A stretch of DNA of 63,958 nucleotides, filler included, from Deltaproteobacteria bacterium (GCA_030698575.1; 6 parts of 6 records of this genome joined end to end with filler, not necessarily neighbours in it); one strand, 5' to 3'. Shown: positions 33,695-51,049, counted from the whole stretch's first letter. Translations and numbers: made by a program. The notes: generated by a model not told the origin, from the letters alone.

Positions 33695-33742
33695 CTGTCC
33701 GAAAGGTAAGATGCGATGGTAACCCGGAGGGTCGCACCAAAC

Positions 33743-33820: not shown

Positions 33821-33869
33821 TAAGTAATTACCCAGTAGGAAGTTGAATGGCATCGCGATATCTTGCAGC

Positions 33870-34976
33870 ATGCCCAAACCCGACGTGCAGGAGTGGCTGC
33901 ACCATTGGCAGGACGAAGCCGACGCCGCCTACCTCTATCTCGCTTTGGCAGGTCAGGAGACGGATCCCCATAAGAAGGATGTCTACGTCAAGCTGGCGGG
34001 CGTCGAGGAGCGCCACGTCCAGATGTGGGAGAAGCTGCTGGCGGGTCACGGTCATCGTACCGGCCCCGCGCGCCCCTCCACCAATGCCCGGCTCCGGGCG
34101 TGGTTCGGGCGGCGATTCGGGACCCGCTACCTGCTGCCGCTGCTGCTGCGCGAAGAGGGCCAGGAAGTCAAAGGCTACCTCAACCTGCATCAGGCATCGC
34201 GCCTCCCTGACGCCCAGGAAGTGTCGCTGCAGCTCGCCAAGGAATCGGCGGCGCACGCGGAGACGCTGGCCGGTCTGTCGGGCCGGGGGAGCGAGCCGTG
34301 GCACAAGACGGGCTCGGGAGGGTTTCTCCGCAACGTCGTCTACGGGTTCAACGACGGGCTGACCGCCAACTTCGGGCTCGTCGCCGGCGTGATCGGCGCC
34401 GCGGTGGAGCCGCATATCATCCTGATCTCGGGCGTCGCGGGCTCGATCGCCGATGCCTTGTCGATGGGCGCCTCCGGCTACCTCGCGGCCAAGAGTGAAC
34501 AGGAAGTCAATGCGCACGAGATCGCGATGGAGAAGGAAGAAATCCGTCTGATGCCCGAGCTCGAGGTCGAAGAGCTGAACCTCGTGTATCAGGCGAAGGG
34601 GGTGGACCCCCGGACGGCGCGCCGGATGGCCGAAGAAGTGATGCGCGATCCGCAGCGGGCGCTGGACGAGCAGGTGCGCGAGGAGCTGAAGATCGGCGAG
34701 GCGCACGCGACGCCGTTCAAGGAGGGCTGGATCACGGGATCGGCGACGGCGGTCGGCGCGTTCATCCCCGTCGCGCCGTTCCTGGTGTTCGAGGGCCGCG
34801 TGGCGATGTGGATCGCGTTCACCATCGCGATGCTGTCCCACTTCGCGGTGGGAGCGGCGCGCAGCTTCTTTACCGGCCGCGGGATCCTGCGCAGCGGGTT
34901 CGACATGTTCGTGGTGGGACTGGGGGTTGCGGCCGTCGGCTACGTCGTGGGGGATGTGATCGCCCGGATCCTGTAA
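33870..34976 (+). CDS. VIT1/CCC1 family transporter with N-terminal ferritin/rubrerythrin-like domain
   Basis: E..H pairs in N-terminal part; RNVVYGFNDGL.ANF, ALSMGASGYL. Confidence 0.88.
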   Translation: MPKPDVQEWLHHWQDEADAAYLYLALAGQETDPHKKDVYVKLAGVEERHVQMWEKLLAGHGHRTGPARPSTNARLRAWFGRRFGTRYLLPLLLREEGQEVKGYLNLHQASRLPDAQEVSLQLAKESAAHAETLAGLSGRGSEPWHKTGSGGFLRNVVYGFNDGLTANFGLVAGVIGAAVEPHIILISGVAGSIADALSMGASGYLAAKSEQEVNAHEIAMEKEEIRLMPELEVEELNLVYQAKGVDPRTARRMAEEVMRDPQRALDEQVREELKIGEAHATPFKEGWITGSATAVGAFIPVAPFLVFEGRVAMWIAFTIAMLSHFAVGAARSFFTGRGILRSGFDMFVVGLGVAAVGYVVGDVIARIL

Positions 34977-34977
34977 C

Positions 34978-37377
34978 TCACACCACCAGGTTCACCAGCC
35001 GGTCCTGGACGTAGATCACCTTTTTCACCGGCTGTCCGTCCACGAACTTCCGCACCGCCCCATCGGCCATGACGCGCTCGAGCACCTGCCGCTCCGAGGT
35101 GCCGCGCGGCACGACGAGCCGCGAGCGCAGCTTCCCGTTGACCTGCACGGCGATCTCGACGTCGCCCGACGTCGCCAGGCGCTCGTCGTACGACGGCCAC
35201 CGCTGCGCGAAGATCGTCCGGCCCTCGCCCCCGAGGACGCGCCACAGCTCCTCGGCGATGTGCGGTGCATAGGGCGCGAGCATGATGATCAGTGGCTTCA
35301 TCTGCTCCCTGCTCCCCGCTCCCTGCTCCCGCAGCTCGTTCACGTACTCCATCATCGCGGCGATCGCCGTGTTGTATTGCAGCGCCTCGGTGTCCGCGGA
35401 CACTTTGCGGATCGTCTGATGGAGCTTGCGCTCGACGGCCGGCGGCGCGGCGCCGCCGTCACGGGCTTCGTGCGCGAGCGTCCAGACCTTCTCGAGAAAA
35501 CGCCGGATCCCGATGATGCCCTCGTCGCGGAAGTCTCCGCCTTCCTGAAACGGGCCGAGGAACATGAGGTACATGCGGAACGTGTCGGCGCCCCACTGCT
35601 GGATGTAGGCGTCGGGAATGACCACGTTGCCGCGCGACTTCGACATCTTCGCGCCGTCTTTCACGATCAGGCCGTGGGCGCGGAACCTGGGGAACGGCGT
35701 GTCGAAGCCCACATGCCCGAGGTCGTGGAGCACCATGGTGATGAAGCGCGAATACAACAGGTGCAGCACGGCGTGCTCGTTGCCTCCGATATAGCTGCTC
35801 ACCGGCAGCCACGTCTTGGTCCGGTTCTTGTCGAATGGCCGGTCGCCGAACTCGGTCGACGGGTAGCGGAGGAAGTACCAGGCCGAATCGAGGAACGTGT
35901 CCGACACATCGGTTTCGCGCCGCCCCTGCCCGCCGCACTCGGGACACTTCACGAAGTACCACTCCTCGTGGCGGGCGAGCGGGCTGACGCCCGTATCGTC
36001 GGGCCGGAAGTCTTCGATGAACGGCAGGACGACCGGCAGGTCTTTCTCCGGGACCGCGACGGGACCGCAGCGCTCGCAGTGGATGATGGGAATGGGCGGC
36101 CCCCAGTAGCGCTGCCGCGAGATGCACCAGTCGTGCAGACGGTATTGCACGCGCACGGCGGCGCTGCCGCGCTCGGCCAGCCACTCGACGATCCGTGTCC
36201 CTCCCTCCCGGCACGGCAGGCCGTCGAACGCGCCCGAGTGCATCAGCACCCCGTCGGCGGACACGCTGGGGAGCGACTCCCCCCCCTTCTCCCCCGCGAC
36301 GACCTGGCGGATGGGAAGCTGGAACTGGGTGGCGAACTCGTGGTCCCGCTTGTCGTGCGCCGGCACGGCCATGATCGCGCCGGTCCCGTATTCCATGAGC
36401 ACGTAATCGGCGATCCAGATGGGGATGGACTCGCCGGTCGCGGGATTGCGGGCATAGCTGCCGCTGAACACCCCCGTCTTGACCTTCTCCCCGACTTTGC
36501 GCGACACGATGTCCTTGCCCTGCACCGAGCGCAGGTAGGCCTTCACGGCGCTGCGCTGCTCGTCCGCGGTGACCGATTCCACGAGCGGATGCTCGGGTGC
36601 GAGCACGAGGTACGTGGCGCCGAACAGCGTGTCGGGCCGGGTGGTGAAGACCGTGATCTTCCGGCCGGCGGGCGTCTCGAAGACGATCTCCGCCCCCTCG
36701 CTCCGGCCGATCCAGTTGCGCTGGAGCTGCGCGGTGGAGGACGACCAATCGATCGTGTCGAGATTCGCGAGGAGGCGCTCGGCGTATTTCGTGATCGCGA
36801 AAAACCACTGCTCCAGATAGCGCTGCTCGACTTTGACGTCGGGGTGGCGCTCGCAGTAGCCGTCGATCACCTGCTCGTTGGCGAGCACGGTCTTGCAGGC
36901 CGGGCACCAGTTCACCGCGGCGCGCTTGCGCACCGCCAGCCCCGCCTTGAAGAGCTGGAGGAAAAGCCACTGCGTCCACTTGTAGTAGCCGGGATCGGTC
37001 GTCGAGACCTCGTGGCGCCAGTCGAACATGCCGCCGAACCGCTTCAGCTGGCGCCGGAACGTCTCGATGTTCTGCGGGATCAGCCGCGCGGGATGCGTGC
37101 CGACGGTGAGCGCGTAGTTCTCGGAATGGATGCCGAAGGCGTCGAATCCGATCGGCTCGAAGACGTCGAATCCCTGCAGGCGCTTGAAGCGGCCGTAGAT
37201 GTCCGCGCCGGTGAACGCGAACATGTTGCCGACGTGCAGCCCCTCGGCCGAGGGGTAGGGGAACATCATGAGGTTGTAGAACGGCCGCGCCGGCACATCG
37301 AGGTCGGGTTCGTTGGTGTGGTGATCCGCCCACTGCGCCTGCCAGCGGGCTTCGACGGCCGCGGGATCGTACGTCAT
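34978..37377 (-). CDS. leuS: leucine--tRNA ligase
   Basis: MFPYPS...HVGN (HIGH), WCISRQRYWG, KMSKS, VQVNGK. Confidence 0.97.
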   Translation of the reverse strand: MTYDPAAVEARWQAQWADHHTNEPDLDVPARPFYNLMMFPYPSAEGLHVGNMFAFTGADIYGRFKRLQGFDVFEPIGFDAFGIHSENYALTVGTHPARLIPQNIETFRRQLKRFGGMFDWRHEVSTTDPGYYKWTQWLFLQLFKAGLAVRKRAAVNWCPACKTVLANEQVIDGYCERHPDVKVEQRYLEQWFFAITKYAERLLANLDTIDWSSSTAQLQRNWIGRSEGAEIVFETPAGRKITVFTTRPDTLFGATYLVLAPEHPLVESVTADEQRSAVKAYLRSVQGKDIVSRKVGEKVKTGVFSGSYARNPATGESIPIWIADYVLMEYGTGAIMAVPAHDKRDHEFATQFQLPIRQVVAGEKGGESLPSVSADGVLMHSGAFDGLPCREGGTRIVEWLAERGSAAVRVQYRLHDWCISRQRYWGPPIPIIHCERCGPVAVPEKDLPVVLPFIEDFRPDDTGVSPLARHEEWYFVKCPECGGQGRRETDVSDTFLDSAWYFLRYPSTEFGDRPFDKNRTKTWLPVSSYIGGNEHAVLHLLYSRFITMVLHDLGHVGFDTPFPRFRAHGLIVKDGAKMSKSRGNVVIPDAYIQQWGADTFRMYLMFLGPFQEGGDFRDEGIIGIRRFLEKVWTLAHEARDGGAAPPAVERKLHQTIRKVSADTEALQYNTAIAAMMEYVNELREQGAGSREQMKPLIIMLAPYAPHIAEELWRVLGGEGRTIFAQRWPSYDERLATSGDVEIAVQVNGKLRSRLVVPRGTSERQVLERVMADGAVRKFVDGQPVKKVIYVQDRLVNLVV

Positions 37378-37445
37378 AAGTGCTTGAAACTAATCGGCCT
37401 TGCCGCGCCTTGTCAGGCTCCATACCTTTGCGCGCGACCACCCGC

Positions 37446-39563
37446 ATGGCCACAAAATCCCAGCAGCTCCGTCAGAGTTTCCTCCTTTCGGGGGCCGGCG
37501 CCGCGTTGCTGCTCGTCGGGCTGGTCGCCTGGCTCACCAGCAACCGGATCGGCCACGTCCTCGAGCAGCAGGCCCACGGCCGCGGCCGGGACGTGGCGGT
37601 GCGCGTCGCCGCCATCGTCACGCACTACCTGAACGAGCGGCGCCGCGAGATCGTGTCCCTCGCCAACATGCCCCAGCTGATCGACGCGGTGCGCCGGGCG
37701 GCCGCCGACGTCGATGCCCGCGGCCTCGACCGCCTGGACATTCCCACCCTCGAGCGGTCGTTCAGCGGCACGCGGCAGCTGGGGGGACGCGCCGACGCGC
37801 CGCTGGCCGGCTACCTCCGCGCCTACGTCACGGTGTCGGACTTCGCCGAGATCATCGTGACGGAGCGCCGCGGGCTGAACGTGCTGGCCTCGAGCCGGCC
37901 GTCGGACTTCGTGCAGCGGGACGAGGAGTGGTGGCAACGCAGCATGAGCGACGGCCTGTACGAGGGCCAGGCGCGCTACGACACCGCGGCGGGGGCGGCG
38001 GCCCTCGAATTCGACGTCGCCATCCGCGCGCCCGGCCAGGAGCGGCCCATCGGCGTGTTCCGGGCGGTGTTCGCGCTCGCCCGCCTCACCGCGCTGCTCG
38101 ATGCGGAGACGCTGAGCGGCAATGCCTACCTCGAAGTGGTCGACGGCAACGGTACCCTGCTCGTGTCGCGCGACCCGGCGCTGCTGCTGCTCTCGCTCCC
38201 CGAGCGCGAGCAGTTTCCGCTCACCGGCGAGGCCACCAGCGTGCGCACGCGGACCGCGCGCGGTGAAGAGCTGGTCATTTCCGTTCCGGCGAACCAGGGC
38301 GAGTGGCGCGTGCTCTATCGGGAGCCGACCGCCACCGCCTTCGCGGCGGCACGCGCCACGCAGCGCAGCGTCTGGCTGGGCGCGCTGCTGGTCGGCGCGG
38401 TGGCCGTCGGGGCGCTGTTCTGGCTGTCGCGGCGCCTGGGACGGCTGGTGACCGAGCCGGTGCGGGCGGCGGGCGCGATCGCCAGCCGTGTGGCGGGGGG
38501 CGATCTGTCCGTCACGGTGTCCACGCATCGAGCGGAAGCCAGTGAAGTCGCCGACCTGCTGTCGTCGATCCATTCGATGGTGGTGGCGCTGCGGCGGCTG
38601 GTGGGGGCGATCCGCACCGCGGCGGACGAGGCCGCGGCCATGGCCTCGGAGATCTCGGCGTCCACCGAGGAGATGAGCGCGTCGACCGAGGAGATGTCGG
38701 CGACCGCGCAGGACGTGTCGCGGCGCGCGGCCGAGCAGGCGCAGCTGGTGCGCGCGGCGGCCGACGATGCGGCACGCATTCTCCAGATCGCCGCGACCCT
38801 CGCGCAGGGCGCCGAGGAGGCCGCGCGGCGGAACGCCGATCTGTCCGCGCTCGCGCGAAAGCACAAGGACGTGCTCGATCAGAGCACCGCGCAGCTCGCC
38901 AAGCTGTCGGACGAGGTCGCCAAGGGCGCCGAGGAAGCCGAGGCGCTCGCCCAGGCGTCCTCGCGGATCCAGACGTTCGTGGTCCAGACCAAGGCGGTGG
39001 CGACGCAGACGAACATGCTGGCGCTGAACGCGGCCATCGAGGCGGCGCGCGCCGGGCCGCAGGGGCGGGGCTTTGCGGTCGTCGCCGACGAGGTCCGCAA
39101 GCTCGCCTCCGTCGCCGCCGCGGCTGCCGGCGAAACGTCCGACACGGTGCGCGGCGTGCTGGCGCGCGTCCAGGCGACGCGCGACCGGCTGGTGCGCCTC
39201 GCCGCAGGAGGCGCCGCGGTCCGCGAAGCGGCCCACGCGGCGGCCCAGGGTCTGGCACGCGTGGCGAGCGAAGCCGACGCCAACGACGCCTGGACGCGGG
39301 AAATCGCGCGCTCGGCGAGCGAGATGCGCGCTTTGGTGGAGGAAATCGCGAACCGGCTGGGCTCGGTAGCGGGACAGACCGATACACTGCTCGCGTCCGC
39401 CGAGGAGCTTGCCGCGTCAGGCGAGGAGCAGACGGCGTCGACGCAGGAGATCGCGTCGTCGGCGAACCAGCTGGCGGAGGCCGCCGATCGCCTCACCGGC
39501 GCCGTGAAGACGTTCCGGCTGCTGGCGGACGAGCGCCCCGACGTCCGCGAAGCGGCCGATTGA
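37446..39563 (+). CDS. methyl-accepting chemotaxis protein (Cache-HAMP-MA)
   Basis: two TM segments, [36 protein letters not shown]. Confidence 0.93.
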
Positions 39564-39624
39564 CCTGAGCGCCAAGGCGCGAAGGATCTCCTTCGCTCGG
39601 GCTTTGCCCTCGCTCAGGATGACA
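39564..39624. repeat. REP-like doublet
   Basis: CCTGAGCGCCAAGGCGCGAAGGATCT followed by inverted CCTTCGC...CGCTCAGGATGACA. Confidence 0.7.
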
Positions 39625-39784
39625 TGCTCGTGCTTCGCTTTATGGAAAAGAAAAAGAAGGATGAAGGCGGCAAGAGAATGATCATGCCCTAGGTACACCT
39701 GATCGAAGGCCATAATCCTACCTGGGAAGATTTGGCCAAAACTCTCTCTTTCCCCTCCCCTCTTTGCTAAAAGCGAGCGCCGAT

Positions 39785-39820
39785 TGTCATCCTGAGCGCC
39801 GAAGGCGCGAAGGACCTGCT
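39785..39820. repeat. REP-like element
   Basis: TGTCATCCTGAGCGCCGAAGGCGCGAAGGACCTGCT, same family as 39564-39624. Confidence 0.7.
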
Positions 39821-39826
39821 TCTGAA

Positions 39827-39934
39827 CGGCGCGCGCTGCGGAGCAAGCTGCTGTTGTACCTGTCCGCCGTGGGCGGCCTGGCGGCGAGCGAGAACACGGA
39901 GCTTGCCGCGCAGTTCCGGCTGCCGCGGATGGGC
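39827..39934 (+). pseudogene. internal fragment of hypothetical gene X
   Basis: reads RRALRSKLLLYLSAVGGLAASENTELAAQFRLPRMG with host-like codons, fused directly to the 3' trailer that follows the X C-terminal fragments. Confidence 0.55.
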
Positions 39935-40000
39935 CTCACTCTCCCCAAGCCTACGCTAACGAGGCGCGGTGGGTGGATGGTCACCTGCCGCGCCTCTTGT
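39935..40000 (+). repeat. X trailer / hairpin T, copy 1
   Basis: CTCACTCTCCCCAAGCCTACGCTAAC + GAGGCGCGGTGGGTG-gatggt-CACCTGCCGCGCCTC-TTGT. Confidence 0.9.
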
Positions 40001-40001
40001 G

Positions 40002-40316
40002 CTATTTAGCACGTCCCAGAGCCTTAACGAGCGCTTCGTGAAGTTTCGGCACGGATTCAACTGCTGTCGTCCAAACCACGTCATTGTCCGTCGCCCAATA
40101 GTGATGCGCAATCCGGTCGCGCATTCGGACCATTGGTGACCACTCGATTTCCGGGAGGTCATCCTCAATAGACGGATCCGCTTCCAGTGCTGATTTGGCA
40201 GCTTCACCAATCACCACAATTTGGTAGAGGATGGCATCGCGAAGGGTCTGATCGCTATCGAAGGCTTTGCGACCGCGGTCGCATAGGTCTGAATCATCTG
40301 GGCGGCCGTTAGACAA
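40002..40316 (-). CDS. HepT/DUF86 RNase toxin (N-terminus short, possibly deleted)
   Basis: VIGEAAK, RMRDRIAHHY (Rx4HxY), D.DVVW. Confidence 0.85.
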   Translation of the reverse strand: MSNGRPDDSDLCDRGRKAFDSDQTLRDAILYQIVVIGEAAKSALEADPSIEDDLPEIEWSPMVRMRDRIAHHYWATDNDVVWTTAVESVPKLHEALVKALGRAK

Positions 40317-40602
40317 GCATCGACTCGCGCATAGCCGTCGATCTGATCGGCTCTCTGAGGCCGTTTATCGTGACGACGTCGACTGGATGACCGAGTAGTT
40401 CCTCGAGCCGCAGTTCCAATCGCGCCAAGTCCAGCAGTGATCTACCAGGCTTCAGCGAGACGAGGAAGTCTATATCGCTGCGCTCGTCTTCCTCCCCTCG
40501 GGCGACAGAGCCAAACACACGTATGTCCACAGCGCCGCTGGCGAGCGCGGTGCTTCGGATTGCTTCTCTCAGCTCCTTGAGTCGATCAAGCAACCGCATC
40601 AT
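40309..40602 (-). CDS. MNT minimal nucleotidyltransferase antitoxin
   Basis: VFGSVARGE...SDIDFLV (GSx10DxD), LEELLG.PVDVV; overlaps toxin start. Confidence 0.9.
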   Translation of the reverse strand: MMRLLDRLKELREAIRSTALASGAVDIRVFGSVARGEEDERSDIDFLVSLKPGRSLLDLARLELRLEELLGHPVDVVTINGLREPIRSTAMRESMLV

Positions 40603-40695
40603 CGTACAAAAGTACTAGTATTTTGCTGCGTGACAAATGGTTCTCATGTCGAAGAGCGAACCAGAGTCGGGTAGTGAGACGCCCAGGGCCGCGTA

Positions 40696-40760
40696 GTCCT
40701 CACCCCCTGGTGATGGAGCGAGGCGCGGTGGGTGGATGGTTCGCCTGCCGCGCCTCTTGT
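40696..40760 (+). repeat. hairpin T, copy 2, preceded by GTCCTCACCCCCTG from the X 3' end
   Basis: GAGGCGCGGTGGGTGGATGGTTCGCCTGCCGCGCCTCTTGT at 40720-40760. Confidence 0.85.
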
Positions 40761-40800
40761 TGTTGTTGGTGGGGGTGCAGGTTGTCGGATCGGTGATCCG

Positions 40801-40845
40801 TGCGCTGAAGCGCCGGCTCGGCGAGAGCGCGCGTCCTGAAGGACG
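40801..40845 (+). repeat. repeat B, copy 1
   Basis: TGCGCTGAAGCGCCGGCTCGGCGAGAGCG identical to 44771-44799. Confidence 0.9.
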
Positions 40846-40947
40846 CAGCAAAACCGACGCTGTTGCCTCGGATCATCCCGCCGCGGCTGTGATCTCCGGC
40901 TGGATCAAACAGCACACGACAACGGCGCAGCAGGGGAATCTGTTTGC

Positions 40948-41703
40948 CTAGGCTTCGGCGGCCAGCGCAACCGGGTAGTTGCTCCATTCGCGACCTTCGA
41001 GCAGTCGCCCGCCCGATCGAGCCGTCCGGCCGCCCCATTGCTTCCAGAAAAATGCCACGCCCTTACGGACGCACAGATCTCTGAGCTCGCGAGCCCAGGC
41101 CGGATCGCAGGCGCGGTGGGTCGCGCCGCTCTCGCCGCCACCGATAACCCAGTCGATTCCGTCGAGGTCGAGACCATCGAGCGAGCCGAGGAGCGGCTCC
41201 GCGCTGATAAAACGGACGGCAGCCGGGATGAGGCGCAGCGCGTCTGCCCGCGAGGCGACATTCATGTCTTCGATGGACGTCCCAATCCAGATGTTCTCGT
41301 TCCACGTCAGACGATCGGCCAAGCGCAGGGCGCGCTCAGGCCGTTTGGTGAGCACCTGGAACTGATGCCAGTGTGCACGGTTCATGACGTCGAACACGCG
41401 TTGAATCAGATCGAGCGAGAAATGCGCGTGAAACACGTCGGACATGCTGTTGACGAACACTCGGCGCGGTTCCGGCCAGCGCAGGGGTTGATCGAGGCGC
41501 GCAGGCCAGAAGCGCGGAGCGAACGGGTCGGCGCGGTTGGCTGCCGTGTTCTTGAGTGGAGTGCCACGTAGATAGACGTCGCGGACTTTCGTGTGCGCCA
41601 GCGACAGTGCGTAGCAATTGTCGCAGCCGCGCGAAATCTTTGTGCACCCCGTCATGGGATTCCACGTCGCGTCCGTCCACTGAATGCCGGTTTTCAGTCC
41701 CAT
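40948..41703 (-). CDS. DUF5131 / phage Gp37-Gp68 family three-Cys protein
   Basis: IQWTDATWNP.TGCTKIS.GCDNCYA, FVNSMSD.FH, LTKRP, WVIGGGESG, FFWKQWGG. Confidence 0.93.
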   Translation of the reverse strand: MGLKTGIQWTDATWNPMTGCTKISRGCDNCYALSLAHTKVRDVYLRGTPLKNTAANRADPFAPRFWPARLDQPLRWPEPRRVFVNSMSDVFHAHFSLDLIQRVFDVMNRAHWHQFQVLTKRPERALRLADRLTWNENIWIGTSIEDMNVASRADALRLIPAAVRFISAEPLLGSLDGLDLDGIDWVIGGGESGATHRACDPAWARELRDLCVRKGVAFFWKQWGGRTARSGGRLLEGREWSNYPVALAAEA

Positions 41704-41888
41704 GGGACGCTCGAAGTTGCGAGTGGACGGCTACCGAATAGACACCGAAGATACGCCCAGAATACAATGGTCTACAAGCGTAGCTGTGTACAGCAGAACC
41801 TGCGCTTCGTTGGGCTGCAAACTCAACGAATGAGGGAACAGCAAGGTCGACGACGGATTTAGGCCACGCGTGCCGGCCGGCGCGAGCA

Positions 41889-42235
41889 CCCTTCGCTGCG
41901 CTCAGGGCAGGTCGTGGGTGCGAGCGCCGATCTGCGGGCCGTGATGGCCGAGATCTCGGAGCAGGTGAAGGTGCTGGACGGGATCGTGCGCTATCGGTTC
42001 GGGGACAATGCCGAGCTGATGGGGGCGTGGGCCAGCGCGCACAGTGTGGTGGGGGCGTTCCGGTCTCAGGCGTCCTCACCCCCTGACCCCCTCTCCGTTC
42101 CGGAGAGGGGGAACGAAGGGCCGGGCATCGTGAAGCCGGCGGCGTAGGCTCACTCTCCCCAAGCCTACGCTAACGAGGCGCGGTGGGTGGAAGGTCATCC
42201 ATCGCGCCTTTCCTTTCCGAAGCAGATCCTTCGCT
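41889..42235 (+). repeat. long module copy: REP-like + X C-terminal fragment (41914-42147) + trailer/hairpin T copy 3
   Basis: near-identical to 44825-45175; encodes GASADLRAVMAEISEQVKVLDGIVRYRFGDNAELMGAWASA...KPAA*. Confidence 0.92.
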
Positions 42236-42535
42236 CCGCGCGCGTTCCACAAGAAGCCTAAAGGTGAGTTTGCTGGTCCGTGAGGAGGCGGTCGTGCTGA
42301 TCCCTGCGACTGGCGACTCAGGCGCGGCTGTCGCGCCTTCGATCCGGCATGTGGCTATCGGCGTGCACCATGAAGCAGAGGATTGCAGTGGAATTGCCGC
42401 AAATCCACCCCTTCGTGCCGCAAAAACACCCTAACGCTGTCACGTGGCGGCCCCATCTTCGCAGCTGGAGCTGCGAGGTCCGGGTCGTTTAACACCTGTA
42501 GTGGGCCTTCACTTCCGGGAACGGACGAGATCCGC

Positions 42536-44749
42536 ATGCTGCCAGATGGCTTGCCCCACCTACGAATTTCAACGGCTCTGGCACGCAGCGAAGCTGTCGT
42601 CGTGCGGGGGGGTGGCGATACGTACACCCGTGAAGACGTTGCCGCTCATAGTCGAGCCCTGCGAGCCGCCTTCGGGCGATCCCTCCAGAACTTTGAGGGA
42701 AAGTTAGACGCTGACCTGGCTGCTGACCTGATAGTGCAGGTGACCACAAGCCCCGGTAGATCCGCAGCAAAAGAGCGCCAACACCTGAAGAATCTAGGCT
42801 TTGAAATCGTTTCGCTGAGTTCCAGCGAATCCAATGTTGCCGTCGCAAGGATCAGCCGAGACCTCATCCCAAGGCTTGCTCAGAAGCTCGATCGATATGC
42901 CGACTCTAGTCGGCATATCGGCAAGACCAACTTCGCCGCTATCGAATCATTAACGCCCGTCTCCGTAGAACGAAAGATTGAACCAGGTCTTGCGGATGCG
43001 GCGAGAGAACAGGCTGTAAACTGCCTAGTAACGCTGTATGCATCACTTCCTACAGAGATGAAGGCGACCGTCGCAACCAGAATAGCTGGAGGTCTTCGAG
43101 AAAGAGGGAAGAGGGAAGTTGCTACCTACTCGTACGCGAACGGAATAGTGGGTATCGCCGCCACTCTAACGAGAGCTGAGATGACGGAAATAGGCGAACA
43201 ATACATGTTTGTTCGATCATTCGAAAACAACACTGAGGTTGTCTCAGAAGCAGCGATTCAGGCTGATCCCGTTCCTGCAATAATACAAATTGAGCACGTG
43301 CAGTGCGAAATGCCGGCTGTTGTCGTTGATTCGGGCATCAATGGCAACTGCTCGTTGCTCGCGGGATTGGTGCTGAGAACTATTAATGAATTGCCTCAAG
43401 GGACCGCGGGCCCGCACGCAGCTCACGGGACGTTTATAGCCAGCCGGGTGATCTACGGCGACGACATTACCACTGTGCTGAACCACCGAGCGCTCCCTTG
43501 GTGCCCGGTCATCGATGTTCAAGTCACGGGCATGGATAATGTTGGAAATCGGGTCTTTCACACGCCAGCAAAACTTGGGGAGATACTTCAAAGGGTCGTT
43601 CCCACGATAGCGAGTCAATCCAAGGTCGTAAATCTCTCTCTAGGGACGAATCCCATTGCAGAGGGACAATACTCTACGCTCGCACGACTGATAGACTTTC
43701 TGTCTCGCGAGCACAAGGTACTGTTCATCATCTCTGCCGGAAACATTCAGAATCCGACCGCGAATCCTCCAGCACATTACCTGGACTCAAATAGCAGAAT
43801 CCTTTCTCCCAGCGAGGCCCTACTGGCTCTCACCGTGGGCTCGATCGCACGTTTTTGTCAAGAGAATTGTGTAGCCCGCGAACGGGAGATCAGCCCTTTT
43901 TCGCGGAGGGGCCCGGGAGCAGACCGAGCATTAAAGCCTGAACTGGCCATGCATGGCGGCAACGTGGCTTTCGATGGGATGGGTTGGACCACGACCCCGA
44001 TCGTCGCTGCGTACGGCCTCGATCGGGACGGTGCGCATCTCTCTTACAACACTGGGACAAGCTTCTCGGCGCCCCTGGTCGCTCAGTTTGCAGTTAGGTT
44101 GTTCGACGCATACCGAGGTGCCAGCCCAAACCTGGTTCGCGGTCTCTTGTGTCATTTTGCCGAGCCGGTACGTACTCCGTCTCCCGGTGCTCCTGTGGCG
44201 GCTCACGATTTTTGTGGCTTCGGAGAGCCGCGAATCCAGAATGCGCTCTTTGCCACCAACCACTCGTCGGCATACCTGTTTGAGGGGGAGATCGAGAAGG
44301 ATACCTATTTGTACATCCCCTTCCATGTTCCTCAAGAGCTGGTGAATGACCCAGCGTCTCGACTTAGGATTCGCGGTACCGTGGTATTCGACCCCCCAGT
44401 GAGTGCGGATGACTCTGTCAATTATTCCCTGTGCCGCGTAGCGGCGCGGCTGAGGAAACGCGTTCAAGGTGGTCTTCGAGAACAGGCCATCGGTGGTGAT
44501 GAAGAGGATGCGCTTTACCCTTGGAATCCTCTCATCCACTTTGAACACTCCTTTAGGCGCGGTTACGCCTCGGGTGAATGGGAACTTCGCCTAAGACTAA
44601 TGACCCGTGGCGACTTGGAGGCGGGCTTTCGACAGAGTGTTGCGGCGGTCATCGAGATCGTTGATGAAAGCGGCAGTGTTGATGTTCGAAACGCAATTCA
44701 GAACGAGGCGCCCGTTTTTGCACCGGTCCAACTTAGATTCGCGGCGTAA
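42536..44749 (+). CDS. S8 family serine protease, IetS/Y4bN-like
   Basis: VVDSG (D), HGTFIAS (H), SAGN, KPEL..HGGN, GTSFSAP (S); lower GC than flanks. Confidence 0.88.
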   Translation: MLPDGLPHLRISTALARSEAVVVRGGGDTYTREDVAAHSRALRAAFGRSLQNFEGKLDADLAADLIVQVTTSPGRSAAKERQHLKNLGFEIVSLSSSESNVAVARISRDLIPRLAQKLDRYADSSRHIGKTNFAAIESLTPVSVERKIEPGLADAAREQAVNCLVTLYASLPTEMKATVATRIAGGLRERGKREVATYSYANGIVGIAATLTRAEMTEIGEQYMFVRSFENNTEVVSEAAIQADPVPAIIQIEHVQCEMPAVVVDSGINGNCSLLAGLVLRTINELPQGTAGPHAAHGTFIASRVIYGDDITTVLNHRALPWCPVIDVQVTGMDNVGNRVFHTPAKLGEILQRVVPTIASQSKVVNLSLGTNPIAEGQYSTLARLIDFLSREHKVLFIISAGNIQNPTANPPAHYLDSNSRILSPSEALLALTVGSIARFCQENCVAREREISPFSRRGPGADRALKPELAMHGGNVAFDGMGWTTTPIVAAYGLDRDGAHLSYNTGTSFSAPLVAQFAVRLFDAYRGASPNLVRGLLCHFAEPVRTPSPGAPVAAHDFCGFGEPRIQNALFATNHSSAYLFEGEIEKDTYLYIPFHVPQELVNDPASRLRIRGTVVFDPPVSADDSVNYSLCRVAARLRKRVQGGLREQAIGGDEEDALYPWNPLIHFEHSFRRGYASGEWELRLRLMTRGDLEAGFRQSVAAVIEIVDESGSVDVRNAIQNEAPVFAPVQLRFAA

Positions 44750-44770
44750 CACCAGAGAAGAGTAAAAAAA

Positions 44771-44815
44771 TGCGCTGAAGCGCCGGCTCGGCGAGAGCGG
44801 GAGCCCTGAAGGGCT
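44771..44815 (+). repeat. repeat B, copy 2
   Basis: 29-nt identity with 40801-40829. Confidence 0.9.
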
Positions 44816-44824
44816 CACCCGCGT

Positions 44825-45175
44825 CCCTTCGCTACGCTCAGGGCAGGCTCTTGAGGACGCGCGTAGTGGCCGAGCCGGCCCTTTAGGGCACGGGTGCGAG
44901 CGCCGATCTGCGGGCCGTGATGGCCGAGATCTCCGAGCAGGTGAAGGTGCTGGACGGGATCGTGCGGTATCGGTTCAGTGACAATGCCGAGCTGATGGGC
45001 GCGTGGGCCAGCGCGCACAGTGTGGTGGGGCCGTTAGGTCCTCACCCCCTGACGAAGGGCCGGGCATCGTGAAGCCGGCGGCGTAGGCTCACTCTCCCCA
45101 AGCCTACGCTAACGAGGCGCGGTGGGTGGATGGTCATCCATCGCGCCTTCCCCGTTCCCAGAGCAGATCCTTCGC
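44825..45175 (+). repeat. long module copy: REP-like + degenerate X C-terminal fragment (44892-45086) + trailer/hairpin T copy 4
   Basis: aligns with 41889-42235 with an insertion after the REP and deletions near the X 3' end. Confidence 0.92.
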
Positions 45176-45299
45176 GCAGCGAGCGCCGGCCGAAGGCCGC
45201 GCGCAGCTGAACCCGCGACCCCCTGACGCGGAGCCGGCGCGCAGCGCCGGCGGAGCGGACGCGGTGGGGCTGGGATGGGTGGGGGCGTCAGCCCCATGC

Positions 45300-45480
45300 G
45301 ACTCGTTAGGGAACCGAGTTACGACACCGAGTAGCAATCACGCGAGGTCCTGGGCGTCGGTGTCGTAACAGCGGACCCGAAGATCAACCGAGTGTCGTGA
45401 GAAACACCCCTATTGGTAGATAGGGGTCGAGGGTCCCACTTCCGCTCGTAGCGCGTCCGGGTCACCGGGCGCACCCTCGG
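45300..45480 (+). ncRNA. candidate IS110 bridge/seek RNA (structured 5' non-coding end)
   Basis: 13-bp stem GTTACGACACCGA/TCGGTGTCGTAAC (45318-45369); ACCCCTAT/ATAGGGGT hairpin inside an internal-loop structure. Confidence 0.45.
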
Positions 45481-45507
45481 AGCTCACCTTTAGCCCCAGG
45501 GGGCTCC

Positions 45508-46758
45508 ATGATCTCCTTCCCCAAGCGTGAGCGCGCCCACCATGCCGCGGCCTGCGTCGGCGTCGATGCCGGCAAGTTCTCCCACACGTTGGTCGTCCGT
45601 CCGCAGCACCAGCCTGATTCCAAGCCGTTCAGCTTTCCGACCACCCGCAGCGGGTTTGACACGGCGGTCGCCTTCATCCGGCAACAAGTCCCGGGCGCCG
45701 CGGCTACGACGATCCTCGTCGGCATCGAGTTCGCCGGGAACTACGGCTTCACCTTCGCCCACTACCTCGCCCAGCTCGGCTTCCCGATCGTGAGCGTGCT
45801 CCCCGCGCATACGAAGCGCTGGAAGGACGTCGCGCACAACCAGCCCCTGAAGACCGACGCGAAAGACGCCGGCACCATCACCGATCTCTTGGCCCAGGGG
45901 CACTTCGTCACCTTCCCGTTCCTGTCGCCCGCGTACGCCGATCTGCGCTACCTGGTCACGGCACGGGAGCGACTCTCGCTGCTCCGCCGCGGGGCGATCA
46001 CGCAGCTCCGCACGCTGATCCAGGTGGTCTTCCCCGAGTTCGAGGCCCTCTTTCCGCTCATCGCCAAGAAGACGCCGTTCACCGTGCTCCGGACCTTCCC
46101 GACGCCCCAGGACCTGCTCGACGCCACGAGGACCAAATTGCTGCGCGTCCTGAAGACCGCCAGCCGCGGCCACCTCGGCGCCGAGACCTACGACAAACTC
46201 GTCGCGGCGGCCCGGGCCACCCTCGGGCTCCCCGGCGCCCAAGCCCGCCTCCGACAAGAGATCCTGCTCACCCTCGAGCGGATCGCGTTGTTCGAGCGGC
46301 AGATCAAGGCCCTCGAGACCGAGCTCGTGGAAGCCCTCCAGGCCGTCCCGGAGACGCCGTATCTCCTGAGCATCCCCAAGGTCGCGCCCGTGACCGCCGC
46401 TGTCTTCCTCGGCTCGATCGGCGACCCGCGCGCCTATGAGGCGGGGGAGCAGATCCTTCGGGTCGCTGGCCTCTCGCTGATCGAGCGCTCGAGCGGCGTG
46501 CTCCGGGGCACGAAGCGCATCTCCAAACGCGGGCGGCCGCTGCTGCGCCAGGCCGCCTACATGTTCGCGGTCCGCAGCATCACGAAGGGCAGCCTCTTCC
46601 GCGCCGAGTACGACGCCCTCTGCCGGCGCAACGGGGGCGTCAAAATGAAAGCCGTGGTCGCCGTGATGCGCTCCGGGCTGCGGCTGCTGTACAGCATCGC
46701 CCGCGATCGGCGGCTGTTCACCATCGCGCCGCCGGCCGTGCGGCGGGTGGCGGCATGA
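45508..46758 (+). CDS. IS110 family recombinase/transposase
   Basis: GVDAGK, GIEFAG, KTDAKDA (DEDD RuvC-like) and C-terminal RSSG...RISKRG..LLR. Confidence 0.93.
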   Translation: MISFPKRERAHHAAACVGVDAGKFSHTLVVRPQHQPDSKPFSFPTTRSGFDTAVAFIRQQVPGAAATTILVGIEFAGNYGFTFAHYLAQLGFPIVSVLPAHTKRWKDVAHNQPLKTDAKDAGTITDLLAQGHFVTFPFLSPAYADLRYLVTARERLSLLRRGAITQLRTLIQVVFPEFEALFPLIAKKTPFTVLRTFPTPQDLLDATRTKLLRVLKTASRGHLGAETYDKLVAAARATLGLPGAQARLRQEILLTLERIALFERQIKALETELVEALQAVPETPYLLSIPKVAPVTAAVFLGSIGDPRAYEAGEQILRVAGLSLIERSSGVLRGTKRISKRGRPLLRQAAYMFAVRSITKGSLFRAEYDALCRRNGGVKMKAVVAVMRSGLRLLYSIARDRRLFTIAPPAVRRVAA

Positions 46759-47006
46759 TCTGAGCTGACGGCAGTTCGGCTGGCCGGCCGGGACGACGGA
46801 GCCCGTTGTGAGTCGAGGCAGCCTCTGGGCTGGCCTCCCATGTGCCAGTGGCTCCCCCGGCCGAGCGTCCGCTTGAGTCTCCGATAACGGGGTGTCGAGG
46901 GTCGCGCTCCGCGAGGAACGCCACGCCTCCGAGTTGGGCTAGGATCGAGCTACGCGGCGCGCGCCGGTCGCTGCTCTTTGAAAACTGTTGGAATCAATTG
47001 AGCCTT

Positions 47007-47135
47007 GGGCCCGGCGCGGATCCGCGCTGTGAGCTGCGGCGTGCTCACGCATGGCCGCCGGCAAAACACTCGATCGCGACCGGGCCCAGCGGGCGGCTGT
47101 TGCGCGCTCCTGAGTTAGGGCCCGGCGCGGATCCG
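47007..47135. repeat. 18-bp direct repeat GGGCCCGGCGCGGATCCG
   Basis: copies at 47007-47024 and 47118-47135. Confidence 0.85.
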
Positions 47136-47230
47136 ATAACCCATTGGACGGGCGCGTCGCGTGCCGCGTCCGACATGACACGTGATCGCGCCGACGCTAC
47201 ATGGGGCCCACCGCATAACGATTCTGCGTC

Positions 47231-47665
47231 CTAGGAGTGTGGAGAACCCGCAGAAGAAATCCGGGATGCGTCGAGACGTCTCCTAGGCAATTGGTGCAGG
47301 AGACCATACGTCAGAATCGCAATGATGAAAGGTGCGACTGCCGTCCTGCTGGTTACTAAGTCCCGCGCTGGCTGACCGGCCATGAACGCACCGAGGAACA
47401 CGACCATTGAGATGGCTCTCAGGAGAGCCGGATGCGAGCCCATCTGAGTACGTGATATCAGCATCATACTCAGGACTTGGGCGACGCATGCCAAGAGTGC
47501 CAGAGGCAGGCTGAGGATCAGTAAGAACACCAACCCGGAAGCTGAAGGTATTTCAGCACCCGTGGTAAAGTGATTTACCAGCGTGATTCCCCCGAGCCAA
47601 ATGACGCCCAGGGCGGCAAGCGCCAGGAACAGATTAAACGCGAGTTGCTTCAGCACTCCACGCAT
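47231..47665 (-). CDS. four-TM membrane protein, putative Rhs immunity protein
   Basis: GGAGG RBS before ATG 47665; hydrophobic helices; directly downstream of Rhs C-terminal fragment. Confidence 0.6.
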   Translation of the reverse strand: MRGVLKQLAFNLFLALAALGVIWLGGITLVNHFTTGAEIPSASGLVFLLILSLPLALLACVAQVLSMMLISRTQMGSHPALLRAISMVVFLGAFMAGQPARDLVTSRTAVAPFIIAILTYGLLHQLPRRRLDASRISSAGSPHS

Positions 47666-47688
47666 TTGCGTTCCTCCCTGGGAAGCAC

Positions 47689-48228
47689 CTACGGATATTT
47701 CAAAGGTTTCCGAAAATCGAACAAGTCGATCGGAGACGATCCACCGTGTGGCGTGCCGATCAGTTGCCACTGACCACCGCGCATAACGTACGCCGCGTGA
47801 GCCGGGAACCTCGTTATCGATCCTGACATCGTGTAGCTTCCATTGGCGTCGGGAGTGAACGTCAACGAGCCGTTGATGTCAGGATTCGGTACGACGCCGG
47901 CGATCTTGGCAGAGTTTGTGAAATTGAAGTCAACACTGATCCCGCCGCCCGCGGCCGCCCTGGCGGTCATGTGGTTACCATCTGATGGTGCGTAACATCC
48001 TCCGCCGGCCGCAAAACATGACTCATTTGGAATGAAGAAGCTCGCGGAGGGCTGGGATGGCATCAAATACATCTGCGCACGCGACTGATCTGGCGACGCA
48101 TTAGCGTCAAATGTCCGGCCATCCCCCTTCCAGATGAGAGTGGTTTTACCTTCAATGAAGAGGTCGACACAGATAGCGCCCTCACGTACCTTCTTCTCGC
48201 ATAACCCGAACGGATCGGTAAAGGCTAC
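47689..48228 (-). pseudogene. orphan Rhs C-terminal toxin fragment
   Basis: frame opens after a TGA with VAFTDPFGLCEKK (DPxGL core end) and continues in frame into the 47689-48072 ORF; no start codon. Confidence 0.8.
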
Positions 48229-48434
48229 TCACAGCACGCATACGCTGCCTCTAAAGACGCGCACCCCTAACTGATCGGGGCTTTAGCGGCAGACTGCTTG
48301 GTTCGCTCGCATTTCTCGTCGTCGCTGCAAGCTTCCGGCAGAGGCGCATTCAAGAACCGGATTCCATCATCGATAGTCCTTGGCGAGCGGTACAGCACTG
48401 GCTTACGCTGCTCACGATGCCTCCACAAATCGGA

Positions 48435-49121
48435 TTATGATGTGACCTCTTCAGGCGGATAGAGCACGCGCTTTGCGATGCCGTGAAGGATTGGGTCTTG
48501 AATGCCATGAAAACTGAAGGCGCGGGAGCGCGCCTTCAGAAAGAGGAATACTTCTCGCCACGGCCACTGCTCGACCGCCAAAGCGTTGCGCGTTCTATGG
48601 CGCGGTGCCAGTCTCACCCGCTCCTGCTCTTTCCGGTACTGAATACCGACATCAAAACCGTCCCACCGGGGTGCCAACTCGACCGCAAGGTCAATGTCAT
48701 TCACGCGCTCGGCATCGGTCAGGTAGCTGCCGAAAAGCACGACACGCTTGACGCGATAGGCGAACTCTTCGGATTGGTTGACCTGTTCGACACGCGCCAT
48801 GAATTCGCGGAGCTTGCGCTCCGCCGTGGCGCGCCGGAGCGGGGCCGCAGCGGATGCTTGCGCGAAGCCGTTGCCTTCGTCCGTAAGCTCATACCACGGG
48901 CCAACCGCATGGTCCCCTGGGCCAATGACCACACGGGGTTCACGTAGCTGAGTCGGGTCACGGTAGAGCGTTCCGACTAGCCCTTTCGCGAGCAGCACCT
49001 CCAGCAATCCGGCGTCCCGAAAGTACCCGGCGACCACCGTCGCGCCCATGAACCTGAGCAGCAGGTCGCGGACCTTCATCACCGGCACGCCGGCGATCTT
49101 GTCGCGTGGATCAATGCGCAC
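48435..49121 (-). CDS. Pol-beta superfamily nucleotidyltransferase domain protein
   Basis: VVLFGSYL.....NDIDLAV motif plus about 110-aa N-terminal extension. Confidence 0.8.
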   Translation of the reverse strand: MRIDPRDKIAGVPVMKVRDLLLRFMGATVVAGYFRDAGLLEVLLAKGLVGTLYRDPTQLREPRVVIGPGDHAVGPWYELTDEGNGFAQASAAAPLRRATAERKLREFMARVEQVNQSEEFAYRVKRVVLFGSYLTDAERVNDIDLAVELAPRWDGFDVGIQYRKEQERVRLAPRHRTRNALAVEQWPWREVFLFLKARSRAFSFHGIQDPILHGIAKRVLYPPEEVTS

Positions 49122-49170
49122 GCTACGCTGCGCCCAGGTAGGTCAACTCGCGCATAGCTTAATACCGAGA

Positions 49171-49722
49171 CTACGAGCGAAGCACCTGCAAGAACGCGTG
49201 CAACGCTCTCGGGAGGAGCCTGATCTGCTCATCGACAAGCCGCGGCAGCAGGATTGGCCGGGGCTCAAGGTGATCCTGCACGAGGAACCCTGACGTGAAG
49301 AAGAATTTGGAGGGCCGACTCCCATCTGACACGCCGAAGCGCAGTCGGGGTCTCTCGGGGTTCACGCGAAACTGAACGTTGGCGTGGCCTAGCGCCGGGA
49401 GTCGAAGCGTGTACTCCAGGCGCATGTGCCTTGGCCCGATCACGCTGCCATGGTGGAAATCCCGGATGCGAAGTTGGTGCACCAGACGCCAGCGCGGGGC
49501 CATCCGGACAATGAGGCGGTCCCATTCCGCGAGGCCGACAGTCAACTCGCCCCGGTTCGCGGCTTCGCGCATCAGTTCGACGGGAGCGCGGAGGAAGTAG
49601 ACAGCGGCCATCCAGTGCCGAAACGCAGCTGTGGCGTTGGTGGCCGATCTCGCTTCGGTGTCGAAGAACGAGGCCCGTTCGAGATGTTCAGCGATGCCGC
49701 GGACCGCGTGGTGCTGTCTCAC
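49171..49722 (-). CDS. hypothetical protein, possible HEPN-like
   Basis: helical N-terminal half with LRIRDFHH (Rx4H); adjacent to NTase. Confidence 0.5.
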   Translation of the reverse strand: MRQHHAVRGIAEHLERASFFDTEARSATNATAAFRHWMAAVYFLRAPVELMREAANRGELTVGLAEWDRLIVRMAPRWRLVHQLRIRDFHHGSVIGPRHMRLEYTLRLPALGHANVQFRVNPERPRLRFGVSDGSRPSKFFFTSGFLVQDHLEPRPILLPRLVDEQIRLLPRALHAFLQVLRS

Positions 49723-49746
49723 GGAGAATCTCTTCGGTTGCTAGGG

Positions 49747-50754
49747 TTATCCGCCGAACAGGCGAACGCCGGACGGGGAGAGCCATTGCAGCGTGATCTT
49801 GTCGGCTCTCGGCATCTCTGCACTCGTTCCGACGAGCCACTGCACGACGGTCTCGGGCGGTCGCCGAGGTCCTCGGTGTGGGTTCCGCATGCGGAAATCT
49901 TTCAGTCTGCCGTAGGCTCCCAGTCGCACGTCTCCGTCATGGCAGCATTGCTCATAGAGACGTCCGCAATCGCATCCGCAAAACTCGCCGGCCCGATGTT
50001 CGATAACCCGCTCGTGAGCCGTGTGGAGAATCTGCCGTCCCGGCCATCGGCCTAGGCGCTTCAGGTGTAGGTGGCGCGCAAGCCAAACCGATTGCAGATC
50101 AAGAAAAACCACCGCGGACTGGCCACGTCGCCACGTTCCGTCGCTTACTTCGAACGCGCAGACGCTTCCATCTGGGTAATTGGTGTGACGCTCCCCGACC
50201 CATATACCAGGTGACCACCACGCCCATGACGCTGGCCAGCGGTCATATGCTCGAGGCCAAGCTGTCAGGAGCAATGCGCTGTCTGGCAAGCCCCTAATGG
50301 GCTGAATCCGGTTCAAGAGGATGACCATGTCGGGCGTGGCGTGCACCCTGACCCCCGGGTACGCCACCTCCACGCCCGACAAATCCCCGGTCAAGCACTC
50401 GGCTTCGAACTCGCCGACGACCGATGTGGAGGCACTGGCCTCCCCTTGTCGTGGGGCGGCCGATCCTTCGGCCGCCCGTGCCCTTCCGGTGGACCCTTGC
50501 CATGATCTGGCTGAGGATCCTCCCGCTCGCGTTCGTCCATCTGCCAAATCCTCCTCTATGCCCGGATCGACGGGGGGAGGAGTCGCGCCGGGCTCGACGA
50601 CGCCTCCCGAAAACACAAATGGCTGACCACCGGCATCGAGCACCGCGCCCACCGCCCCCAAGCGACTGATGCCCACCGAAAGCGTGTCATGCACTTGGCG
50701 CTCCGCTCTGTTGCGTTCGCGAGCTTGCTCGGGACCTATTGCCGGCCGTGTCAT
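49747..50754 (-). CDS. prokaryotic E2-like domain plus SEC-C-like zinc motif protein
   Basis: WVGERHTNYPDGSVCAF (E2-like H..N..G..C), TW and CGCDCGRLYEQCC. Confidence 0.65.
   Translation of the reverse strand: MTRPAIGPEQARERNRAERQVHDTLSVGISRLGAVGAVLDAGGQPFVFSGGVVEPGATPPPVDPGIEEDLADGRTRAGGSSARSWQGSTGRARAAEGSAAPRQGEASASTSVVGEFEAECLTGDLSGVEVAYPGVRVHATPDMVILLNRIQPIRGLPDSALLLTAWPRAYDRWPASWAWWSPGIWVGERHTNYPDGSVCAFEVSDGTWRRGQSAVVFLDLQSVWLARHLHLKRLGRWPGRQILHTAHERVIEHRAGEFCGCDCGRLYEQCCHDGDVRLGAYGRLKDFRMRNPHRGPRRPPETVVQWLVGTSAEMPRADKITLQWLSPSGVRLFGG
50391..50540 (-). CDS. nested 49-aa Pro/charge-rich peptide in an alternate frame
   Basis: GAGGAGG 9 nt before ATG; MDEREREDPQPDHGKGPPEGHGRPKDRPPHDKGRPVPPHRSSASSKPSA*. 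Confidence 0.45.
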   Translation of the reverse strand: MDEREREDPQPDHGKGPPEGHGRPKDRPPHDKGRPVPPHRSSASSKPSA

Positions 50755-50807
50755 GAAGGTAAGTCGGAGGGTCGTCTAGCATCAAGCGGAGCGCACGCGT
50801 TAAACCG

Positions 50808-50842
50808 TCAAGTCACACGCACGTTACGTGCGTGTGACTTGA
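50808..50842. promoter_or_regulatory. perfect 17-1-17 palindrome, putative operator/divergent promoter
   Basis: TCAAGTCACACGCACGT-t-ACGTGCGTGTGACTTGA. Confidence 0.75.
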
Positions 50843-50949
50843 TAAACCGTACCGCATCTGCGAGTTTAACCGTGTATGGCACGTCTGCGGAGTCTAGAAC
50901 ACCAAGGCATCAGCAAACGCGTAAAGGAAGCGTTTGGGAGACGTCTACG

Positions 50950-51049
50950 NNNNNNNNNNNNNNNNNNNNNNNNNNNNNNNNNNNNNNNNNNNNTTAATTA
51001 ATTAANNNNNNNNNNNNNNNNNNNNNNNNNNNNNNNNNNNNNNNNNNNN
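50950..51049. other. artificial contig spacer
   Basis: N run with central TTAATTAATTAA. Confidence 0.98.

Follow-up and report, generated by a model that had tools for sequence, protein, structure and literature searches.

Tails of a dispersed multicopy gene and a REP doublet form the recurring joint of a bacterial gene array with defense-type cargo

INTRODUCTION

A REPtron consists of a single Y1 HUH gene flanked by repeats (PMC6006769). For TnpA-REP, both tandem amplification and the capture of flanking sequence have been proposed (PMC3333891), and its cleavage sites have been measured between C and T and between C and A (PMC8266576). Repetitive extragenic palindromic sequences (REPs) occur inside coding regions in general (PMC3733652). 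Here we describe a gene array in a 63,958-nucleotide stretch of DNA (the window) from a Deltaproteobacteria bacterium (GCA_030698575.1). The recurring joint of this array is DNA from the tail of a dispersed multicopy gene, which we call X, together with D, a REP doublet of a separate Y1 transposase; it is not the X protein.

The locus resembles REPtrons and REPINs in having a Y1 HUH gene between hairpin repeats tagged with GT[AG]G, with inverted doublets elsewhere in the genome (PMC3333891, PMC8266576, PMC6006769). It differs from them in that GT[AG]G lies 5 nt from the stem rather than 0 to 2 nt (PMC6006769), and in that the protein encoded on contig C176 passes the cut-off of IS200/IS605 TnpA and not that of the REP-associated family. 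Furthermore, the junctions between D and X lie at GG, not at CT or CA, the doublet here is joined to the tail of a protein-coding gene, and kilobase-sized defense genes lie between the repeats. A second likeness is to the promoter early stem-loop elements (PeSLs) of T4-type phages, short repeated pieces with a terminator hairpin between nonessential genes, where recombination between repeats shuffles modules and can free circles (PMC2839356). PeSLs have a sigma70 promoter and belong to phage genomes, whereas the pieces described here are 3' parts of a chromosomal gene plus a REP doublet, and the joints yielded no promoter. In additive flexible genomic islands, cassettes build up behind a gene and a duplicated 3' piece marks integration (PMC5217437). 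Here, in contrast, the target is a dispersed multicopy protein gene rather than a tRNA gene, the duplications measure 100 to 350 nt with many breakpoints, and no tyrosine or serine integrase was found in the array. Unlike an integron cassette array, the locus has X tails and REPs as its joints, and there is no integrase among the genes of the contig, which may be incomplete. By analogy, the X-tail array would work like PeSL shuffling and additive islands while being a member of neither. No description of the arrangement of X tail and D was found in the literature searched, outside which most subscription papers lay.

RESULTS

N-padded linkers at window positions 11183-11282, 32913-33012, 50950-51049, 56096-56195, and 61358-61457 identify the window as separate contigs joined end to end; the array lies on a single one, window 33013-50949 (genome contig C288). 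The first-pass annotation had described three fragments of one uncharacterized gene here. Translation bore out one C-terminal peptide for both 41914-42147 and 44892-45086, and a different segment on the same trailer for 39827-39934 (repeats 92% identical over 160 nt and 98% over 101 nt). The two peptides lead to one full-length protein, encoded by a single intact 227-amino-acid (aa) open reading frame (ORF) that the same genome carries on contig C85 (76% and 75% aa identity). All three fragments are real, and a fourth, shorter remnant (40669-40766) had been missed. The earlier statement that each fragment starts at or shortly after a REP holds for two of the three: fragment 2, which covers X from aa ~153 onward, begins near 41862, and what precedes 41914 is no boundary, this REP being a 24-nt in-frame insertion within the fragment. 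Fragment 3 is frameshifted near its end, with an early stop in the X frame and the IVKPAA tail in another frame. The trailer proved to be X's own 3' hairpin, a 17-mer of which has five exact copies in the genome, four in the array and one after intact X. As an independent repeat the trailer was rejected, being found only behind X or X remnants, and the C85 copy was rejected as parent of the fragments, with 78 to 79% nt identity versus 86 to 89% to other (metagenome) alleles. In Logan assemblies of two public runs, contigs run across the left-hand junctions of fragments 1, 2, and 3 (that of fragment 3 in run X2), which are therefore not assembly artifacts; the genome itself may come from the sample of run X1. 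No contig of the two runs spans the whole array, and the cassette order across repeats is given as assembled.

D consists of two inverted arms of ~50 nt, left (DL) and right (DR), that fold as one long hairpin (z = -3.0 and -5.2 for the doublets), with GT[AG]G 5 nt before the small stem of the arms. The genome holds nine such arms, four around the transposase gene on C176, three in the array, one upstream of intact X, and one elsewhere. The Y1 transposase (131 aa; C176:7309-7704) lies between D arms and scores 67 bits against NF033573 (IS200/IS605; cut-off 55) and 36 bits against NF047646 (REP-associated; cut-off 80). Its four closest homologs (in genomes G199, G369, G056, and G255) are each flanked by D arms as well. 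On L002, the sequence at free D ends is GCACGG-A in six cases, while X-fused ends are without the A. Our genome survey comprised 401 genomes of the Gemmatimonadales-containing order that holds G004, including the unpublished G077. D occurs in 28 of these, and 17 of the 28 have no X match; D is therefore a repeat family of its own, and its identification as X's own terminal repeat was rejected. In the X- and D-bearing genomes G004, G011, G073, G095, and G111, which are incomplete, no close match to the transposase was found at E 1e-25. Two further homologs (G343:C4:7131-7499 and G395:C69:16453-16821) have an intact X copy at a distance of 0.3 kb and 1.4 kb, respectively. The transposase region L002:6940-8323 (genome C176) is a REPtron-like cluster beside a gene that by eye is glyA-like, with a tRNA-like hairpin at ~8060-8150 among the D arms.

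For the joint itself, we compared metagenome loci, the best 78 of 346 matches to the peptide of fragment 2, several of which may stem from related or shared samples. DR is fused to X at nt 484/485 in nine of these loci (10 junctions), as in fragment 3 of the window. In a different allele group, L109 (with two junctions) and L111 have the fusion point at nt ~553; in L114, it is at about aa 198. In total, D-X fusions were found in 12 of the 78 loci, a share biased upward by the choice of query, and at three points in X. DL lies at most 55 nt 3' of the X hairpin in nine fetched loci, three of them near-identical, and in the window. DR was upstream of none of the ~54 near-complete X copies mapped, many with a short upstream flank. 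The order X, hairpin, (cargo), D, X tail, hairpin was seen directly in L106, L109, L111, L114, and L117; L117 carries 2.9 kb of cargo at the center of D, and L101 has the same methyl-accepting chemotaxis protein (MCP) gene end as the window, followed by two D-X units with different cargo. This geometry (X-hairpin-DL...DR-X) is the one expected if a downstream DR end was joined to a site in an upstream X, by duplication or by a re-entering circle. DR resembles X at nt ~450-485, and the junctions share GG or CGG. In G005, a truncated X lies 0.76 kb 3' of its intact sister, with 90% identity and a tree pairing of 100/92.

The array comprises the following features (window coordinates, strand).

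37446-39563, plus: MCP gene, the core-gene anchor at the left edge of the array (Pfam MCPsignal)
39564-39821, no strand: 25-codon gene remnant (39693-39767) with a REP-A palindromic repeat on either side; exact REP-A cores at 39612-39624 and 39785-39797
39826-39933, plus: X fragment 1, covering aa ~67-102 and running straight into the trailer; cut 4 nt past REP-A; 88.9% identity over 108 nt to the intact allele of L107
39932-40000, plus: X 3' trailer, terminator-like hairpin, copy 1 (hairpin z = -5.7; same motif behind intact X)
40002-40602, minus: cargo 1, MNT/HepT type VII toxin-antitoxin-like pair (Pfam HepT-like; PADLOC PDC-S09)
40669-40766, plus: X fragment 4, derived from a different allele and made up of the final ~9 codons, the stop, and the hairpin with its T-tract (DNA alignment with intact L112, L102, and L114)
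40798-40846, plus: DL of doublet D, directly 3' of the X hairpin
40948-41703, minus: cargo 2, DUF5131 gene (Pfam; PADLOC PDC-M41B)
41862-42147, plus: X fragment 2, aa ~153 to stop (REP-B in frame at 41890-41913; REP-C hairpin at ~42073-42114)
42148-42215, plus: X trailer and hairpin, copy 3
42536-44749, plus: cargo 3, S8 subtilase, IetS-like (Pfam Peptidase_S8; PADLOC IetS; the ORF start may be 42383)
44771-44893, plus: complete REP doublet D (DL and DR), a REPIN-like single long hairpin (z = -3.0) with REP-B inserted at ~44826-44849
44894-45086, plus: X fragment 3, which begins at nt 485 (aa 162) and is attached to DR's final base (same junction in nine metagenome loci)
45087-45155, plus: X trailer and hairpin, copy 4
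45508-46758, plus: IS110-family transposase closing the array on the right (Pfam DEDD_Tnp_IS110, Transposase_20)

GC content drops from 0.74 to 0.58 after the MCP gene, orthologs of which occur in 40 of the 401 genomes. The exact REP-A core has five copies in the genome, four of them on the two X contigs. The remnant between the REP-As matched no family, shows 46% identity to a REP-A-flanked piece in L014, and is, we presume, GIY-YIG-like. In L078, a REP-A pair lies directly 5' of the X leader; fragment 1 is a probable relic of a head copy of X. Fragment 4 rests on DNA alignment, BLASTP of its 10 residues having given no match. The small repeat REP-B (~24 nt) inserts into other repeats, namely D and REP-A (window 41890-41913 and 44826-44849; L013:11316), and two unrelated X alleles (fragment 2 and the truncated copy in G005) carry it at one and the same codon boundary, H161/V162. 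The same IS110 end occurs close to X in L032/L067, L103, L143, L146, and L164. The stretch around this element (45170-47230) we take, by eye, to be attC-like, and the genes to its right (47231-49121, minus strand) resemble integron-type cassettes by eye. A tandem repeat with a 15-nt period lies elsewhere in the window, at 60646-61095.

The cargo between the joints has a lower GC content than core genes. For cargo 1, the NCBIfam matches to MntA and HepT are both under cut-off, and the match of cargo 3 to IteS reaches 206 bits versus a cut-off of 900, with no AAA partner gene called adjoining it. The DUF5131 gene is without the TcmP partner that is present in L101; the interval 40847-40951 was rejected as a TcmP remnant, as it does not align. 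The cargo of 41 related loci was scanned, Pfam being run on 107 of the 177 genes called there and PADLOC on 45 of the 107. Defense or toxin-antitoxin-type matches, generic kinases not being counted, were found in 17 of the 41 loci, a count from these 107 of 177 genes and without matched background. They include PD-Lambda-1, pAgo, ubiquitin-like, AbiGi, HEPN-RES, NYN, AbiV, Schlafen, PD-T7-1, a C5 methylase with Vsr, SAVED-HNH, and PDC-M41. Intact X on C85 itself heads a defense island (L001:5564-18122) with a Panacea antitoxin, an RNase H/helicase fusion, an MqsA-like antitoxin with SecB, and BrxB. Genes near X tails at L111:1025-1801, L115:2425-3030, L118:678-2956, L123:220-882, L114:4604-5311, and L164:2180-3310 had no Pfam or PADLOC match and are candidates for undescribed defense genes. 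At L012:10600-11583, an integron integrase (TIGR02249, 453 bits) comes immediately after an X copy truncated at its 5' end. The suggestion that X marks hotspots stands for the allele subfamily of the fragments; it fails for most X copies in 22 other genome loci, which have ordinary neighbors, often a small Uma2 or retropepsin-like gene.

A search for the X family gave 902 matches among 6,165 candidates. The family comprises 3,247 clusters at 50% identity, and the nearest Atlas clusters are mostly from Gemmatimonadota. X is present in 87 of the 401 genomes; in 15 genomes picked for many or close matches, we counted 2 to 15 X matches per genome, up to ~11 of them near-complete. Searches of the bacterium's own family, order, class, and phylum, covering only two to three genomes, found no other genome with X. 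These data agree with the earlier suggestion of one helical hypothetical family that is multicopy in Gemmatimonadota, and X is not the single-copy gene in stable synteny named there as the contrary outcome. The structure prediction and Foldseek search that had been proposed yielded an all-helical bundle (pLDDT 86), as anticipated, and no match at E <= 0.001. The best VIA match of the model was the helical bimodular domain (HBM) bundle of McpS (Z 10.5, rmsd 3.9, 180 aligned), within the generic-bundle range, and a match to the fold of a diversity-generating retroelement accessory protein (Z 8.2) was dismissed as helical-bundle noise.

Among 100 X members, no Pfam family rose above noise, and no HUH, DDE, tyrosine, or serine recombinase family was found. 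A sequence search for solved relatives found none, and in a diverse alignment W200 is the only invariant residue. DUF6261 (PF19775) and related helical hypothetical proteins resemble X in length and in language-model features (0.86 to 0.87), but identity with DUF6261 was rejected (0 of 100 members match at E 0.05); an unnamed Bacteroidota cluster is closer by the same features (0.93). A search for fused forms of 430 to 2000 aa gave none, which is weak evidence, and by eye the extensions of eight longer matches are flank read-through. No copy of X was found on viral contigs or plasmids; the 17-mer of the X hairpin occurs in eight viral stretches. The first-pass proposal that X is the mobile or organizing component thus finds no support for the protein, for which no enzyme fold or family was detected and which was not found on such contigs. 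X is probably a sigma54-regulated, nonenzymatic helical-bundle protein and a passenger.

Intact X forms a unit of a conserved leader of ~560 to 600 nt, ORF, and hairpin, the leader often starting at a REP-A end. A TGTCC-N8-GGACA-type palindrome occurs in 25 of 58 X leaders. The leader also carries repeated TGTCC half-sites. The sigma54 consensus is GG-N10-GC at -24/-12, and of 28 leaders inspected by eye, 22 have a motif of this type; in the intact copy of this genome it is degenerate. With this motif, an upstream palindrome, and an rpoN match in the genome, intact X has the sequence features of a sigma54-dependent gene and is predicted to be one. As the mark of a genome-wide regulon, the leader palindrome was set aside (19 sites versus 10 in the control at one mismatch). 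The ~600-nt leader at L001:4230-4833 (genome C85) and the leaders of L100-L114 contain a small GGCACG...CGTGCC hairpin before the ribosome site.

Leaders that are ~80 to 92% identical adjoin at least five different core genes, and those annotated upstream of intact close alleles are of core type (PAP2, peptidase S9, PALP, cupredoxin, DinB). None of 30 orthologous MCP loci, one of them from the unpublished G201, carries an X hairpin within 1.5 kb. Because similar leaders adjoin different core genes and the MCP loci lack the hairpin, the X unit has no fixed address; the MCP gene was rejected as a fixed X locus, with seven aligned ortholog loci running into varied genes. Tandem near-complete X copies occur in G065:C4, G181:C106, and G343:C8. 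A syntenic X copy with the same internal deletion is found in two genomes (L063:14289-14759 and L066:9923-10393), so that some sites are vertically inherited as pseudogenes.

DISCUSSION

We propose that the X tails are noncoding 3' duplicates of X and that the repeat units provide homology for the gain, loss, and exchange of cassettes, a reading that we consider somewhat likelier to be right than wrong. It would begin with intact X as a self-contained unit, seen at many core-gene borders, usually just behind REP-A, and with an allele subfamily that has DL 3' of the X hairpin, D belonging to a resident Y1 transposase like those of IS200 and tyrosine transposases associated with REPs (RAYTs). 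The right-arm end would have been joined to a site in an X copy upstream, by tandem duplication or by a re-entering circle, to give the unit [X tail - hairpin - DL - (cargo) - DR], presumably more than once. Foreign genes, often of defense or toxin-antitoxin type, sit behind the hairpin or at the center of D, and the 200- to 400-bp repeats would serve as substrate for homologous recombination to add, drop, or swap this cargo, while the hairpin carried by each repeat may insulate neighbors. The head copy would then have decayed, leaving fragment 1, and later units would have eroded to varied lengths (fragments 4, 2, and 3). Most simply, the D-X junction would result from hairpin-stimulated, microhomology-guided template switching; microhomology can explain the junction because just upstream of nt 485 X has a sequence like that of DR, with GG or CGG shared at the junctions.

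Several observations weigh against this proposal. Truncated X copies without D are common, with breakpoints near nt 200 (four cases) and at nt 447-493. Only one of the four window fragments is fused to D, and fragments 2 and 4 begin at no repeat. In a tree of 141 columns, D-fused tails are scattered among intact alleles with nine changes, but the tree is poorly resolved, and its starred branches force only two. The fusion share and the defense count carry the query bias and the missing background stated above. In a terminator scan, the hairpin of fragment 4 alone passes, three of the four window hairpins failing the T-tract test. No cassette exchange was caught in progress; a joint in run X2 that skips the cargo (39934 to 45088) lies inside a 49-nt repeat at a depth of 4.9, with cargo contigs present in the same run, and may be an assembly artifact.

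The Y1 transposase could instead make the junctions and move the cassettes itself, binding the D hairpin on single-stranded DNA (ssDNA), cutting the DR end and X, and joining them. A circle [X tail - hairpin - DL - cargo - DR] would then re-enter any X, the landing pad of a RAYT-driven analog of the integron. This account gains from D arms with GT[AG]G 5' of a bulged hairpin, which flank the transposase here and in its four closest homologs, from the use of the same DR end at different X sites in every fusion, from the A that follows the six free ends and not the fused ones, and from the rarity of D arms in the genome (nine, four of them at X loci). The sites that TnpA-REP cuts and rejoins, moreover, lie some distance away from its REP, and the enzyme has been proposed to take up genes or fragments of them (PMC3333891). 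We nonetheless consider the account unlikely, as the junction lies at the hairpin foot after GG and not between C and T or C and A as measured for TnpA-REP (PMC8266576), and the likeness of DR to X can by itself account for the junction site. Most D copies are far from X, 17 of the 28 D genomes have no X match, and a close transposase match is missing from the five incomplete genomes named above. A related idea, that a domesticated IS200/RAYT-like transposase, its REP doublet, and the dispersed X constitute an integrase-free cassette system, with ssDNA circles excised and then docked by homologous recombination, is in our view unlikely. Passive decay, the repeated arrival of whole X units at a REP-rich hotspot followed by palindrome-started deletions of 5' parts that left the tails idle, accounts well for window fragments 1, 2, and 4: fragment 1 is cut beside REP-A and internally deleted, and fragment 4 comes from a different allele. 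The non-X remnant between the REP-As, cargo genes without their usual partners, the many internally deleted or frameshifted X copies, and the tandem near-complete copies fit it too. But it requires DR upstream of intact X, which was not seen, and predicts neither one base-exact junction in 10 loci with different cargo nor tails that match the adjacent upstream copy, which makes it rather improbable.

That the X protein mobilizes or organizes the array, for example by binding leader palindromes or repeats, would suit its patchy, multicopy distribution, the similar leaders beside different core genes, and the repeated half-sites. A pure helical bundle without a significant fold match, with no recombinase family in 100 members and W200 alone invariant, makes this role very doubtful, and a palindrome upstream of a sigma54-type motif fits an activator site. 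The notion that tails are kept as small functional peptides or RNAs acting with intact X or the cargo is hardly credible: fragment 2 does keep 67 codons open when read from an internal ATG, and its REP-B insertion preserves the frame, but fragment 3 is frameshifted, start points vary among loci, both ends of the L111 tail are cut off, and seven loci gave no match to any Rfam family.

X itself is a large uncharacterized family with a conserved sigma54-type leader. The combination of X tail and D doublet is a landmark for mining defense genes in a lineage of soil and groundwater of which few members are in culture, and several genes behind the joints matched no family. The defined natural junctions, together with one enzyme, make the host role of REP-associated transposases testable. 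Should the transposase-based cassette system prove true, it would provide a concrete host benefit of REPs and RAYTs, the building of antiphage arrays.

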